NCBI GenBank assembly: GCA_010405405.1
Contig: MU004237.1
Location: 1,871,345 to 1,935,344 of the forward strand
Source: Microthyrium microscopicum
Taxonomy: Eukaryota
Direction: 5' to 3'
Length of the DNA stretch: 64,000 nt
A program made the translations under genes and the position numbers. How positions within the stretch are numbered: position 1 is the first letter of the stretch; each line of letters begins with the position of its first letter. The notes beneath the pieces are model-generated. The model had not been told where the DNA came from. It searched no databases and worked only from the letters and a program-made list of their open reading frames with translations. Of the stretch, positions 5,722 to 13,313 are shown in pieces.

Positions 5722-8700
5722 TTACTCAAGAACTTGAATCCTGGACTTCTGGCCTTCAGATGGCCTCTCAGGATTAACATGCAATCCTTCCAGGTGCTTC
5801 AAAGTGAAATCCGAAGTCATATTGCCCAAATCTCCCTGTCCAGCGTCCAGGAGCTGTCTCATGCGGAAGTTCTCCAAACTTTCCAGGACAGTCTTCGCCT
5901 GATCCCGTACAATATCGTCTTCATCTGAGTTCATTGCCCAGCGCAGAACCTTCTTGAGTTCAATCCATTTGACGCCCTCCAATCCTGCAATGGCCATGTG
6001 GTTGTCCGTGGCTCTGTCAAGCGCCCGTAGATGCGCCATAAGGACTAGGACAGCACCACGACGGAGCATAGCATTTGCTTGACCTTCTTCAATCGTTAGA
6101 ATAGCTAGGACCACATCTGCTGTGGAGTTGATGATTTCGTTGGTCATATCAGATGCAACGTGCTCAAATGTGCTACTTAAGATGGCGAGCGCGGAGGTTC
6201 GAATACGTGGATCTTCAGAATTGTCTGAATCTTCCCATTTCTTCAGAATATCTTGAACGACTTCAAGTCTCTGCAGCTCTAGTCGTCTGGCATCTTCATC
6301 CATTTCGTCGTCTTCGGCGGCGTCAGTTGATAGATCTGGGATCTCACCACCCCACTCTCGTTCAGCTCGTCGTTGCTTCGTTTTCTCCAGACGTTCTGCT
6401 TTCGCACGCTCTTTCAGTTCTTTGGTGCGAATACCGCGCCGTCCAGCTACAGCAAGGCATACTTCTGCCATTCGTAAGAAGAGACCGGGCTCTGATTTGA
6501 CTGGTGATTCAACAAAACCAATCAGACTTTCAGCAACGCGGAGACGCGCATCAAGCGAGTTCGTTTCTTTCTGATCCTGGAATGCATCCGTATATGTTCG
6601 AACAGCATAACTTGCATTTGGAGATGAAGCCAAGTTGGAGAGGACTTTGATAGCAGCAAGATACACGAATTCTTCCGGGTCCTTGGTAATGACTTCTAAC
6701 AGGAGTATCGCTATCGTTGGTACGTCGTACTGCATATCTGGGGTGGCCAACAGGATCCCTAACCTTTGAACCGCTTCTGCACGGTCGGGGGGATATTTGG
6801 AGGTCAGTGAGGATTTTATGCGATGTAAGGTCTCTGGGCTCAAGATATTGATCTTTGCGTCAGCTACAGGCGCTTTGCTATGAAGAGCAAGGCTTATGTT
6901 TGAGACTGCTACGGCTAGCGAGGCTTTGGTAGACGTAGACAGCTCCTTTTTCCCCAAATGTTGGAGAGATTCGAGATTGGTGGAGATTTCTGATAGACAG
7001 TCTTGAGATTGCTGGTCCATTTGTTCGAGTTGGGAGGGAAGAAGTTGATTCAATAAGCTGATAGTCGTAGCCACCATATCATCTCTTTCTTCTCGTTCAA
7101 CCTTTGACAAAATATTGCCTTCGCGCTGAGCCTGATTGACAATGTTCGACAAGCCTTGTAGAGACGCGCTTTCAACATCTCTCAAAGCTTGCTGTGCCTC
7201 GCGTATCGCCGCAATGTTCTCAAGGAGGACTTGATTGATAACTGTGAAGATTTGAGTCGGCCTCTCGAGCAGCATGCCATCATCACGCTGCATAAGAGCT
7301 TGAATGAGCTGGTTCTCCCCCAAGGCCAAGAATGGATCCTGCTCTGCCGCAATCATCGTTTGTGATGGCTTGAGTAGCTGTGAGCTCAAGAGATGAACAA
7401 GGAACTCGCTGAATAGCTGTGGCTCTAAAGAGCTCTGCTCGAGAAGCTCAACGAGCTGCTTAGCCCTGCTTGTTCTCATTGATATCTTCTCAATTGCGGA
7501 TAGTGTATAATCTTGGCGGCAAACACGAACAGCAATACCGCCCTCGGAGCCCATTCCAAAGACCCATTCATGCTCGTCGTCCCAGATGAGATTTTTGGAG
7601 AGAAGAATGATGTGATTCAAATTGCCGCAACGTCGGAGAAACAATCTCAGAATCAACTTGGCCAGGCTCGTGGTAGCTGCTCTATGTGGAGTAGCAAAGT
7701 CCATACACGATAGTTCCCAGATAGGAAGAATTAAAGGTCGAACAAGTCGACCAGTCAGTGAAGGATTCGGGTGAACATCTACCAAAGCATGCAAAGACTG
7801 CAGACTCGACGCGAGGCGAGACTCGGAGACTAGCATTCCTAGAACTGGATCCGACCCTTGTTCAGGCTCAGCTGTCTCTTTTAGTGGATTGATTGCATTC
7901 TGTAAAGGAGTCACAAAGAGTGTCCATCCGATTGTACCTGGGGCACCAATGTTCTTCTTGTGGAGGATACCATTGGCGATGATGAAGGCCGCTGCTTTGG
8001 CAAACTCTGGTCCTTCAGTTCCTGAAAGCAGGTCCAGTAATTGAGGAGCGATTCTTGTATAGTACTCGTCAACGGATACCGAGGAAGGAACAGAAGTAAG
8101 GATTCTAGTAGCCTGGCTCATTGCTTCAGGAGTGAGAATAATGCCGTCTTTGAGAGGCTCTGAACCTGCTTTCGAAGAGGGCTCTTCGGTATAATTTTGT
8201 ATCATGATGAACCTTATGGCCCCTCTAACTCCTTCAGGGCGAAGTGGGATCACAGATAGATATCTTGAAAGATTCATCCTCAGCCAGCCAGGAGCTTGTG
8301 GCTTGATGAGCGCTGTCAAAATCTGGTACAATCCATCCGTGTTGACTCGTTCCAATGTCTTGTCCAGGAATGTAGCAGCTAATTCTCTGCAAGTTTCTGA
8401 TCGCGACGGATTGAAGGCTAAATCGGAGTTGGCTGCTAGAACGTCATTGTATATGCGATTTGCAACTTCTGAATGGATGCCAACGTTGGCACCGAATGCC
8501 AAGTCATTCAGACAGGTCATGACATCGTCAAGTATACCAAGGTCTGGAAGGTTTCCGGCAAATTTCGTACAAAGCCGGGTTTTGGCCAGTAACTCTTGGG
8601 GAAACCCGACTCCAAATGCAAGTGATGGGTACATCCCCTCAAGGAGGATGAAATCAAGCAAATTTGAGACGGTATTCAGCAAACTCATGTCAAGATCTCT

Positions 8701-8998
8701 CATTGACGCAGAGGCAGCCGAATCATCAGCTCCGCTTCCAACTGCATTATGAATATCTTTCAAGTACTGTATTGCCCGCCGAACCACTTCCTGGCCGCCA
8801 TCTGGAGAAAGTGATCTGCCTTCACTGGAAAGGATGGCATGCGCAGCACTTATCTTGGTGGGCGGGGAGCTAGCCTCTACATTGGTTAGCTCTTGTTAAC
8901 GTTAAAGACAGAATAAGCGGTTTACTTTTTATCAAGGCTGGATCAATGAAGGCAGTTGCTTGGCCAAGGACGCTGTCAAGCGCTTCAGTGCGAGACAT
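5722..8998 (-). CDS. RTP1: RNA polymerase II assembly factor Rtp1 / TANGO6 family ARM/HEAT-repeat protein
   Basis: 1021-aa ORF with family-like segments (LLRP.GVR-like PLRPEGVRG, DPEEFVYLAAIKVLSNLA, RIRTSALAIL). Reconstructed first exon 8998-8926 (MSRTEALDSVLGQATAFIDP) and 49-nt GT-AG intron 8925-8877 with GCTAAC branch join in frame to the long ORF. Confidence 0.82.
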
Positions 8999-9199
8999 GG
9001 CTATATTTATGATACTTCCAAGTCTCTCTTGCTCGGAGCAATAGGATAGAGGTTTGGCAACAACAACATTTCACTCTATACTCGTGACCTCGCAAATGTT
9101 TAATTTTTGTCAGCGAAGGAGGTAGAAGTGACGAGAACTGATCGGCAAAGATATTGCCAAAAGCGGATTTCTAGGTCACGTGCCGCGCGTCAACCTCGC

Positions 9200-10924
9200 G
9201 ATATCAAACCTTCTGAAAGCGCGTCCCCAGACTTCTTTTCCTCTCACACCCACAGCCCGCACCCAAGTCGCGCTCGATTATTTCTCTTCTTCACAGCCTT
9301 GTCTTGTCTCAATTCTTTTCGCTAATGATGTTGCTCTAGGAAGGGTTAAGATCAATTCTGAAGCCGCGCGACTGTCCCTGTCTCTCTACTACAGACCCCT
9401 AAGCATGGCCTCTCTCTACAGTTTACCGTCTCAAGTCTTCTGGCTCGCGCTGGAAATGTCTCCTGACAGCTCAATTGACCTGCACTTTCGGTTCATGTCG
9501 TGGCAGATTTAGCTTTGAAATACATGCTTCCTCCATGGCTGGGCCAGGTGCTGCAATGGTGAAAGCTATTGTAACCGGGTTTTTTGAGCGTTCACGATTC
9601 GGAACTTAACCCTAACAATCCCATATCTGCGTCTCACGGTTGTAGTTACCAGATTTTTCAGATTACTGCTTGGAGCGAAAGATTTGGTCTTGGTGAAAGC
9701 TGAGTTCCAGGTTGGAAGCGAAGGGTAGGAAATGCTAGACTTGGTGTCCGAATCAACTAGAATTGCATGCGCCTTATTGGGTTAGATTCTCAAGTGAGAA
9801 CGCGCGTCGCTTGCCTGGGCGGATATTTGACTCTGGTCAACGCTGACTGCTTTCTGGTTATCCTGCCGATAGAGAAGTGACTGACAGCTCTGGGGTCATC
9901 GCACGAAGCTTCGTTTGGAATCGCCAACCATGCCACGTACCTGATTTGGATATATCTTCGACCAGTCAGGCTTGGTTCCGGTGAAACCATTCGTTGTGGA
10001 AGGCAGTGGCATCAACTCTTTGCTTGATTTCATGCTCTTTTGTCGAATCAGGTCTTGAAAGCTTGTATCTGGTGCACGCCGACGATACAATTGCTTTTGG
10101 CATAGTCATGACCTCCGTGTTAATCGTCTCTCTTCAGAGATTACCTTTGTCGATTGATTGATGAGCGCAGATACTGCTGCTCTACTTTTTCAAGTTGACT
10201 TCAGCAATTACCTCCTGTGGGAGAAGAAAGCGGTTTTTACGGATGTTTTTTGTTCGCTTTTCAATGCCCGATGGTTGCCTTTTGGTGCCGGAGAGGAAAC
10301 AAAGACTGCCCAAAGAGGAATGCAACTACATACAGAGAGACCTTGGACGGGACAGTTGCAACGTGGATGGTTTGTGACTAATTCTTCTGAATGCAAAGGA
10401 GGTGATAACGATTGAAACAGCTCAGACCGGTTTGCGAGATCAGGCAATCAGCGCTAACTTTTATAGTATTCCTTTCAAGTCTACACTCACAAGTCTGCCT
10501 TGGTCCTCCAAGTATCAAGGAATCACTTCCAAGAACGGCAGCTGGGGTTGATGGAAGACACAATTTGGACGAACGACAAAAAGGCTGCTCAAGGATATCA
10601 AGCAAAGAAGCTGCTGGGTCAATAAGCTTTGAGGTCACGGTCAGAATATAATGGGACCTCACTCAAGTGGGAGTCAAAGTTTCGGCTTGTCCATTCGTTC
10701 TGATCGCTCGTGGTGGATGGATCCAATAGCATACTTGCCTTGGTGGGCTTGGGTGGTCGTCGGAAGTCTTTTGATTGATGTCTTTCAACGCGTATGCCAT
10801 ACTTGGGGGCCGAAGAGATGTGCTTGAAACCTTGTTTTACATTGTGCTATGTCTGACGGCGGAGGGATACACACAATTTTTTGTTACCCGCTGCCTCTGC
10901 AAGGAGGCAGCACCACTTTTTTTT
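9200..10924 (+). ncRNA. TER: Telomerase RNA (TER/TR), about 1.7 kb; 5' end approximate
   Basis: Region lacking a credible ORF. Template TAACCCTAA(C) at 9607-9616. GAAA-capped hairpins at 9552-9573 and about 9690-9705. Long-range pairing of 9214-9267 with 10739-10787. Sm-like site AATTTTTTG at 10875-10883. 8-bp stem at 10890-10911. U-tract followed by ATAAGT (10925), GCTAAC (10958) and CAG (10973). Confidence 0.85.
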
Positions 10925-10973
10925 ATAAGTAACCCTCAGTCTCTCCGTTCGCAATGTGCTAACTACGTGACAG
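10925..10973 (+). other. TER 3'-terminal intron with non-canonical ATAAGT 5' splice site (predicted spliceosomal cleavage site)
   Basis: ATAAGT at 10925-10930, branch GCTAAC at 10958-10963, acceptor CAG at 10971-10973; 49-nt length matches ordinary introns in this window. Confidence 0.8.
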
Positions 10974-11844
10974 GAAAGTGTGTCTTCAGCTGATGTTCCC
11001 ATACTCTCTTCAATTCTGGCTTGACATTCTGGGTTTTACCCGTCCACTGCCTTCTCGAATAGACAAACTCTGATTCAATTCGATTTAAAAGTACTGTTCA
11101 TGTCCCATGTAGAAATCCTCATCTTTGTCAACTCTTGGCTCAAGCTCGAAGCCACTCTGAGCAACTCCATAGTATCGATGGTTGTAGCACAACAGAGCGT
11201 ATGCCCTCTTACGCATGTACTCATGCGGTTCACAATCATATCATTAGGAGCACTCGGACAGCAACCACTCGGCCAGTTTTTGAGACCAATTTGAGCTGCC
11301 CTCCTCGTCAAGCTTCAGGCCCTATGGACTAGGTAAAGCTGTGCTCTCAGGATGTGCTGTGATCTGTCCTGCGTATATCCCACTATGGAAAGATTGAAGA
11401 GAAAATGAAGACTAAATCATACAGAAAGTGCGCTGGCTACTTGCAGATGCTTTACATGCAGCAGGCATGTCTGCTCGGTAACGAATCAACTGCCAGCATC
11501 ACTAAAAATGCTCCCATCAGGCTGAGATTCCATTTTAATCTTTTGAATCGTTATTGTTGCAAAGACAAGAATTCCAAAAGGCTTTCGTCCAACTTGTTTC
11601 TGCTTCAACAATACTAAAAATGTTTTTCTTCTTGTAGAATCACATCTCGGAGGTGGTTTAAAGCACATGCCACCTCGGATGAACCAACCCGCCGATCTTC
11701 ACTCATTGTTTCGTCGCGGGAACCCTCTCAAGAATGACCACATCGCCATTTCGTCTCTTCCCTTTTCATTCATGATCAGTCATCCTCAGCTGCAGCGCTA
11801 AATCATATCACTCATCGTTATCAACACCGCTCACAGTTATCAAC

Positions 11845-12306
11845 ATGTCTTTCACCCTACCAGAAAATTTCCACATCCTTTCCATTCCATTCTACTGGGG
11901 CCTAGCCATATTACCTCACGGTTATGCAATCCACCTTGCGACCGGTGGCAATGCATTGAAATGGGACAACCGCAATCCACGAACCACCAACCACCGTGCG
12001 AACGTTAAAAGCAGACTCAGCCCCGAAAACTTTGCTCTTTATGAAAGGGCAGAAGCTGCCTCTGCCAATGCTTTTGAAAACCTACCCATCTTTGCCTCTG
12101 CTGTGATCATTGGCCGGATGGCAGGACTCAGCAAGACCGTGCTGGATGACTTTGCAATGAAGTTCTTGCTTGCGCGAGCAGGGCATTCTCTCAGCTATCT
12201 TCTGATCAACAACTCGAGACTCGCAGCTATTCGGACAGTGTTCTATTTTTACAGCATTGGGCTATGTATCAGAGTTATGGTCAAGGCGGCGAAGACACTG
12301 CCTTGA
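11845..12306 (+). CDS. MAPEG superfamily membrane protein (153 aa)
   Basis: WDNRNPR and RAEAASANAFENLPIFASAV motifs, FLLARAGHSLSY, several hydrophobic helices. Confidence 0.85.
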   Translation: MSFTLPENFHILSIPFYWGLAILPHGYAIHLATGGNALKWDNRNPRTTNHRANVKSRLSPENFALYERAEAASANAFENLPIFASAVIIGRMAGLSKTVLDDFAMKFLLARAGHSLSYLLINNSRLAAIRTVFYFYSIGLCIRVMVKAAKTLP

Positions 12307-13313
12307 AGTTTTCGGATGCCAAGAGCTGGTTTGCCCCTTTCGTTGACATCGGCAATTCCATCAAAGTGTATAATAGTGGGTGAAGCTATGTCGAGGCGAA
12401 AACATCTATGTATCAACAATATATCGTCAGATGATGCTTCAAACACATGTTTTGGAACTGAGGCTGTACCTCTAATAAAAGACCTGAAACCCAAACATTC
12501 AATATATACAAAGTCTAAATATCAGAAGCTGTCTTGGCTGTTGATCATCCTATGTCGATCGCACTTCTAAGGGTCCATATTCATTCGGTCTTATAGTCAA
12601 GCTACTCAGATATCATCGGGGGTTAGCAGTGGTGTATAGTTTGATATGACAATTTTCCAGATACATAGATTGGGGACCAATTGGGTTGGTTTCCCCGCGT
12701 TCTTCTTCCCGGGTGTGTTACATGATTTTTTAAGCTTATTACATTAAGATATTATACTAAGACTGCCCTTGCGTGCGAGTTGGTACGTTCCTGTGGCATA
12801 TTTGGCGACCCAATTAACTGTAAACTGCGGTTAGAACCGTTGACCCAGTACAATTGTCCTTACTAAACCTTATTGAGTCTCTCGCTCTTTTACGCTTCAT
12901 AAATCCACTGGCAATGAACCCTACAATATTGCAGATCTAATGAATATCTACTGTAAGGATCCACAATGATCTACTTACCCTCCCGTGCATAAAACATCTG
13001 TACGAGCGTTCGATAACCAATAAAAGGAACCAGAAAGTTGTTTGAAACATGCTAAAGTACAGACCATCAGATCAGGCCAGTGAAAACACCAGGTAAAACC
13101 ATCTGAGCCCACAATAGACGAGACAAGTCAATATCATTCAAAGTACCTCTGCAAATGAACAGACCACTTGTCTCCTAGATCCAGATATAGCTAAAGCTTA
13201 CAGTGCGTCGGAATGATGCTTTGCCCTTGCACGTACCAAGAAATGGTGGCCAACAATGATATTCTGATAGTCATTAATAGCTTCAAATTGTGAAAGATGG
13301 TTATCTCGTACTG

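Follow-up and report, generated by a model that had tools for sequence, protein, structure and literature searches.

A telomerase RNA (TER) gene of the Pezizomycotina type very probably lies at about 9351-10924 on the plus strand of the window, the whole 64,000-nucleotide (nt) stretch of DNA analysed here from Microthyrium microscopicum (Dothideomycetes, Microthyriales); a probability of roughly 0.93 is given to this reading. The four modules that define such an RNA (template context, pseudoknot, P6/P6.1, and a 3' module of AUAAGU, branch point and 3' splice site) are each present in one copy; all lie on one strand, follow the order of known TERs and have the spacing typical of them. These modules of sequence and structure, their order, their spacing and the RNA-derived cover of the region support the gene directly. 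An earlier sequence-only reading of this DNA had proposed that the region holds the TER of this fungus, and the proposal is upheld by the four ordered modules and by the cover of an RNA-derived contig. On rereading 8000-12000, all of the sequence features listed in that reading were found in place. Of the extent it had given, 9200-10924, the 3' limit was kept, and the start is probably nearer 9351, where the RNA contig begins.

Modules of the predicted telomerase RNA

The window was compared with 39 metagenomic loci (L001-L039) that had been picked from metagenome contigs by their P6/P6.1 pattern, and the loci are therefore independent evidence for the other modules only. Module order and spacing are the same in the loci and the window, and the template flank, the pseudoknot strands, P6.1 and the 3' splice module are conserved. 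In blastn, the window aligned to the loci in just two places, the pseudoknot (at most 72.5% over 102 nt, E 5.7e-7, L035) and P6/P6.1. Covariance models of the template context (R1, 21 sequences), the pseudoknot (R2, 19 sequences) and the 3' splice module (R3, 20 sequences) were built without the window, and each was searched against the 64 kb. Each model gave a single match, and the three matches are collinear on the plus strand.

The sole match of R2 (10219-10317, +) scored 55.4 bits with an E-value of 1e-12. Across the 19 sequences and the window, the proposed pseudoknot pairs were present in 93.0% of 374 cells, compared with 44-59% when the partners were slid, and both PK1 and PK2.1 carry both-sided changes across the alignment. 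The order of the U5 loop, UUUUG, PK2.1 and CAAAG fits the PK1/PK2/PK2.1 layout described for the Neurospora TER pseudoknot (Qi 2013, PMC3592445) and the U-A.U triple model for that of Aspergillus (Kuprys 2013, PMC3603654). By this likeness, the U-rich loop and the UUUUG/CAAAG helix could form U-A.U triples, and a triple helix is predicted at 10219-10317. UGGG and CCCA, which flank the pseudoknot, might form a helix enclosing the core; this was seen by eye only and was given no weight.

The pseudoknot and P6/P6.1 had been left unplaced in the first reading, and both are now located, the latter within a P5/P6/P6.1 three-way junction at 10638-10706. Pairing in the junction was found in 94.6% of 504 cells over 27 loci and the window, compared with 29-46% when slid, and six of the eight P5 pairs show both-sided changes. 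The P6 interior CATC[TC]NGNGTTG is common to all 39 loci; the window has TCACTCAAGTGG and keeps the helix through compensatory changes (A-U to C-G and C-G to U-G). Compensated changes of this kind are the pattern expected under structural selection, and they add comparative support for a helix that is otherwise almost invariant.

The predicted template and the C that follows it (TAACCCTAAC) sit in a 17-nt block, TCGGAACTTAACCCTAA, which agrees with the template context found almost unchanged in 21 metagenomic TERs. More widely, TTCGGAACTTAACCCTAA at 9598-9615 corresponds to a block with little or no variation in these 21 non-redundant TERs. GAACTTAACCCTAAG is invariant in the 21 loci and the TC[GA] preceding it nearly so; the window has C for the last G, its version of the context being TTCGGAACTTAACCCTAAC. 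The sole match of R1 on either strand (9559-9669, +) scored 20.2 bits, with an E-value of 0.018 that is modest and roughly calibrated. The 9-mer TAACCCTAA occurs once in the window against a chance mean of 0.25, and at least one match was obtained in 21 of 100 shuffles. The bare 9-mer is thus weak, and its significance comes from its context and from the other modules. Upstream sequence of 1500 nt or more is available for 25 loci, and in 24 of them the same 9-mer stands 1063-1476 nt before P6 (1023-1476 nt in all template-bearing loci); the distance in the window is 1046 nt. The one exception among the 25, L036, has no TAACCCTAA and may use a variant template, like some Aspergilli.

The base after the template is C9616 in the window and G in 21 of 21 aligned loci, so that a 10-nt template, UAACCCUAAC, is possible, with an alignment region extended to 4 nt. 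An engineered 10-nt template of this kind, the t1 mutant of the Neurospora crassa TER (NcrTER), raised repeat-addition processivity 2-3 fold (Qi 2013, PMC3592445). It is possible that the window carries a natural 10-nt template together with a 4-nt L6.1 loop, a combination that would predict altered repeat-addition processivity.

Two further elements had been described 5' of the template in the sequence-only reading. The 9-bp hairpin with a GAAA loop at 9552-9573 is indeed present in the minimum-energy fold, and its sequence is not conserved in the metagenomic TERs. For the template-boundary stem, the complementarity exists as described, but comparative support was not obtained: RNAalifold found no conserved helix 5' of the template in the 21 TERs. 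The helix that stands 2 nt off the template in Aspergillus and Penicillium TERs is not evident in the window, where the candidate ends 4 nt away.

The sole match of R3 (10903-10977, +) scored 15.6 bits with an E-value of 5.6e-4. Of the 24 loci that extend 400 nt or more downstream, 23 carry ATAAGT 155-235 nt past P6.1 (236 nt in the window), and 22 of the 23 ATAAGT-bearing loci have CTRAC 27-52 nt beyond it (AUAAGU to CUAAC is 28 nt in the window). A terminal intron of the form ATAAGT..GCTAAC..CAG had been predicted earlier, and the R3 match and the presence of the module in these 23 loci support it. By its motifs, the succession of U8, AUAAGU, GUGCUAACU and CAG is the known module for first-step spliceosomal cleavage; AUAAGU, GCUAACU and a C-rich/U-run element (CGGC3-5U7-12) by the 5' splice site have been described in 13 Aspergilli (Kuprys 2013, PMC3603654). 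In the alignment, the ACCAC-U8 tract of the window takes the place of the C-rich/U-run element in other TERs. The Sm-like AAUUUUUUG, proposed earlier as an Sm site, aligns to a different and paired element of other TERs, with no conserved single-stranded element. That proposal is not established. The Sm-like element known from the literature aligns with the tract at 10912-10924, and from the alignment the U8 tract appears the better candidate for Sm/LSm binding. The hairpin predicted at 10890-10911 matched an unrelated Rfam hairpin at chance level. L039 is the sole locus with at least 400 nt past P6.1 that lacks ATA[AC]GT within 500 nt; a different 5' splice site or another 3' end pathway is possible there.

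Rfam scores, RNA-derived cover and competing explanations

At gathering thresholds, no Rfam family matched anywhere in the window. The region 9150-11000 was scanned a second time with E-value thresholds, and two pieces of RF02462 (Telomerase_Asco) were recovered: 10653-10688 (+), matching model positions 1654-1690, which are P6/P6.1 (20.2 bits, E 0.00089), and 10230-10310 (+), matching positions 1285-1381, which are the U-rich and A-rich pseudoknot strands (12.4 bits, E 0.21). The two pieces are collinear on the plus strand and in the right order. The ascomycete covariance model, named earlier as a check on the prediction, thus matches the pseudoknot and P6/P6.1 in order but misses its gathering score. 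That score, 30 bits, was chosen by curators for a model that spans 1858 positions and includes long variable stretches, and is not a biological feature. Routine Rfam annotation at the gathering score misses TER genes like this one, and short module models made from metagenomic TERs (template context, pseudoknot, 3' splice module) find the TER cleanly. The other weak Rfam matches in the region (Rothia-sucC, MIR9666, TCL6_1, rli32 and CLRN1-AS1) are at chance level, far below gathering, and were rejected.

One public sequencing run contains the stretch. Its kind was guessed as RNA and is not recorded as such; it was taken to be RNA-derived because its contig over the neighbouring RTP1 gene skips 8877-8925, a 49-nt intron with GT..AG on the minus strand (contig joint 8876/8926). 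A second contig spans 9351-12526 with 0 differences from the window and without a joint at 10925-10973, so that the 49-nt terminal intron is retained in the sequence as assembled. It crosses the TER region, an 870-nt spacer free of open reading frames (ORFs) and the whole MAPEG gene unbroken. The transcript expected over 9200-10924 from the earlier reading is therefore matched by RNA-derived cover from 9351 on, and not at 9075-9350. Cover is missing from the run at 9075-9350 and again at about 12527-12892, a weak hint to the transcript limits. With the contig start at 9351 taken as the approximate 5' end, the mature RNA would be about 1574 nt long. The span of 9351-12526 could result from a TER precursor that reads through, from a long MAPEG 5' untranslated region (UTR), or from an overlap merged by assembly.

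Several points weigh against the identification as a TER. The best local RF02462 score, 20.2 bits, lies below the gathering score of 30, and the E-value of R1 is modest. All 39 comparison loci were chosen by the P6/P6.1 pattern and none is closely related to the window, so there is no within-lineage covariation. PK2 never varies and thus gives no covariation evidence, and PK2.1 has two non-pairs in the window. The L6.1 loop of the window, UUCG, has 4 nt, compared with 5 nt in 27 of 27 aligned non-redundant loci. It keeps the conserved U and G, it is not an assembly error, as the RNA-derived contig is identical to the window there, and L6.1 loops of 4 to 5 nt are reported for S. pombe and S. 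complicata (Qi 2013, PMC3592445). The candidate boundary helix CCGGGU/AUUCGG is without comparative support, the minimum-energy fold preferring other pairs, and the CCCCUCC...GGAGG hairpin, found in most loci right beside the 5' splice site, is missing from the window. From the contig, neither strand nor ends nor local depth can be read, its span over two genes does not prove one molecule, and, as it runs through MAPEG, the same cover would fit a long 5' UTR. The searches for a TER covered the 64-kb window.

Three other explanations were considered. In the first, the TER precursor and the MAPEG mRNA would be one (RNA polymerase II) transcription unit, and first-step cleavage at U8|AUAAGU would separate its non-coding 5' part from its coding 3' part. 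The contig bridges 9351-12526 without gap or joint, and a basidiomycete TER is made from an mRNA precursor (PMC9564094); a joint TER-MAPEG unit, if true, would be the mirror image of that arrangement, in which the TER is excised from the mRNA precursor. However, assembly merges overlapping transcripts, and the 3' cleavage product, by reasoning only, would be uncapped, in the form of a lariat intermediate and probably unstable. Furthermore, tblastn found no MAPEG gene beside the TER in the 39 loci (12 of them with the full 2000 nt downstream). A joint unit is therefore considered unlikely.

A second, inactive or redundant copy of the TER gene (a paralogue or pseudogene), with the working gene elsewhere in the genome, would agree with a search confined to 64 kb and with the departures from consensus: the 4-nt L6.1, the two PK2.1 non-pairs and the missing terminal hairpin. 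Against this, the window retains every invariant position in the template context, PK1/PK2 and P6.1, the P6 changes are compensatory, as selection predicts, and the region is covered by the RNA-derived contig. Duplicated TER genes are not known to us from Pezizomycotina, and no search was aimed at this. A copy of this kind is considered very improbable.

An equally improbable reading takes the region for nothing more than a long 5' UTR, or a non-coding upstream transcript, of MAPEG, in which the telomerase-like motifs arose by coincidence: the unbroken contig through the MAPEG ORF, the 9-mer matched in 21 of 100 shuffles and the missed gathering score would allow it, but R1-R3 and Rfam match on the same strand with TER order and TER spacing (pseudoknot E 1e-12), a two-gene contig is no proof of a single transcript, and an ordinary UTR intron should be spliced out, whereas the contig keeps 10925-10973.

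Predicted function and known telomerase RNAs

We infer TERT binding, TTAGGG synthesis, first-step cleavage and the identity of the polymerase from the TER family. The product would be a long non-coding RNA of about 1.57 kb; RNA polymerase II probably transcribes the gene, in the direction divergent from RTP1. TERT would copy the single-stranded 5'-UAACCCUAA(C)-3' (9607-9615/16) into TTAGGG repeats at chromosome ends; no telomere repeat array was found within the window. The P6/P6.1 arm (10655-10688) would be the second core element beside the pseudoknot. In Neurospora, the pseudoknot and P6/P6.1 are two TERT-binding domains that are both needed for activity, and the same binding is presumed here by family. 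At the 3' end, the spliceosome would perform only the first splicing step, at U8|AUAAGU (10924|10925). The A at intron position 1, which is required to halt splicing after the first step (Kannan 2015, PMC4299874), would block exon ligation and leave an RNA ending in the U tract.

Among the nearest described counterparts is NcrTER (Qi et al. 2013, PMC3592445), which is also a long RNA and has the same 9-nt template, UAACCCUAA. Both cores are shared: the template-pseudoknot core with PK1, PK2 and PK2.1, and P5/P6/P6.1 with a 4-bp P6.1. NcrTER differs in its length of 2049 nt, compared with about 1.57 kb predicted here, and in its 5-nt L6.1 (NUNGN), compared with the 4-nt UUCG; the C after the template of the window permits a 10-nt template like that engineered in t1 (PMC3592445). 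The TERs of Aspergillus and Penicillium share with the window AUAAGU, GCUAACU and the pyrimidine or U-rich tract before the 5' splice site (Kuprys 2013, PMC3603654; Kannan 2015, PMC4299874), and their genes, as here, have an ORF-free intergenic location (PMC3603654). The TER of A. nidulans, at 1584 nt (Kuprys 2013, PMC3603654), is near the predicted length of about 1574 nt. In Schizosaccharomyces pombe, the 3' end of TER1 is made by spliceosomal first-step cleavage, as predicted here; the second step is stopped otherwise, and not via an AU 5' splice site (Kannan 2015, PMC4299874).

The locus is a real gene that had not been annotated before. Its family is well known from related fungi, has its own Rfam model and counts more than 80 published members. 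Vertebrate telomerase RNA likewise has a P6/P6.1 arm, in its CR4/5 domain, and terminates in an H/ACA domain. Among the papers searched, none names both Microthyrium microscopicum and telomerase. Dothideomycete TERs were known earlier, that of M. graminicola having 2425 nt (Qi 2013, PMC3592445). A little-studied Dothideomycete lineage thus gains a TER gene with mapped functional parts, and existing knowledge of telomerase is left unchanged. The gene is mildly interesting for its score below Rfam gathering, its divergent but compensated P6, its 4-nt L6.1, its possible 10-nt template and the contig bridge to MAPEG.

Feature coordinates and flanking genes

Table 1. Positions in the window of the predicted telomerase RNA, its parts and the flanking genes.
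Feature	Position	Strand	Basis or remark
RTP1 gene (RNA polymerase II assembly factor)	5722-9074	-	Pfam RTP1_C1, RTP1_C2
Probable shared divergent promoter, RTP1 (-) / TER (+)	9075-9350	.	contig stops only
Predicted mature TER	~9351-10924, ~1574 nt	+	5' end approximate; 3' end predicted at or within the U8 tract
Hairpin with GAAA loop	9552-9573	+	9 bp (3 wobble), minimum-energy fold
Candidate template-boundary helix CCGGGU/AUUCGG	9575-9580 / 9597-9602	+	6 pairs (2 G-U), ends 4 nt before template
Conserved flank UCGGAACU	9599-9606	+	directly 5' of template
Predicted template UAACCCUAA	9607-9615	+	~1.5 telomere repeats
Predicted template plus following C, TAACCCTAAC	9607-9616	+	reread sequence
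Pseudoknot domain	10219-10317	+	R2 match
PK1	10228-33 with 10254-59	+	named structure, pair count
U-rich loop	10234-38	+	pseudoknot (U5)
PK2	10248-52 with 10300-04	+	UUUUG/CAAAG helix
PK2.1	10267-74 with 10288-96	+	named structure, pair count
Three-way junction (CR4/5)	10638-10706	+	minimum-energy fold of 10620-10715
P5	10638-47 with 10697-706, plus 10650-54 with 10691-95	+	
P6	10655-75	+	
P6.1	10677-88	+	4-bp stem AAGU/GCUU, loop UUCG
Sm-like AATTTTTTG / AAUUUUUUG of the earlier reading	10875-10883	+	42 nt upstream of 5' splice site
Terminal hairpin GCUGCCUCU GCAA GGAGGCAGC	10890-10911	+	9 bp, fold prediction
Pyrimidine tract ACCAC-U8	10912-10924	+	adjoins 5' splice site; predicted mature 3' end, candidate Sm/LSm site
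Predicted first-step-cleavage intron, 49 nt	10925-10973	+	motifs and R3
5' splice site AUAAGU	10925-30	+	intron start
Branch site GCUAACU = GUGCUAACU	10958-64, branch A 10962	+	27-nt spacer after AUAAGU (GCTAAC 10958-63)
3' splice site CAG	10971-73	+	11 nt past branch A
MAPEG family gene, 153 aa, single exon	11845-12306	+	PF01124, E 1.6e-11

The flanking genes had been named RTP1 and MAPEG in the sequence-only reading, and Pfam agrees on both (Table 1). The gap between them was said to hold no credible ORF; it contains only nine ATG ORFs of 51-84 amino acids (aa), and no Pfam family matched any of them. The RTP1 ORF runs over 5722-8703 on the minus strand, and its protein is entered in a public source as a hypothetical protein of Microthyrium microscopicum. 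The RTP1 contig stops at 9074, where adapter letters follow, which places the 5' end of the RTP1 mRNA near 9074; the TER contig starts 277 nt away. The interval of 9075-9350 between the two contigs weakly suggests a divergent promoter shared by RTP1 and TER.

When RTP1 and MAPEG were searched against the 39 loci by tblastn, one weak RTP1 match was obtained, most loci being too short upstream. The match is an RTP1-like fragment at L033:3-143 (44.7% over 47 aa, E 1.2e-4). With the TER set as plus, it lies on the minus strand, upstream and divergent, which is also the layout of the window, so that some lineages may have kept the RTP1-TER arrangement.

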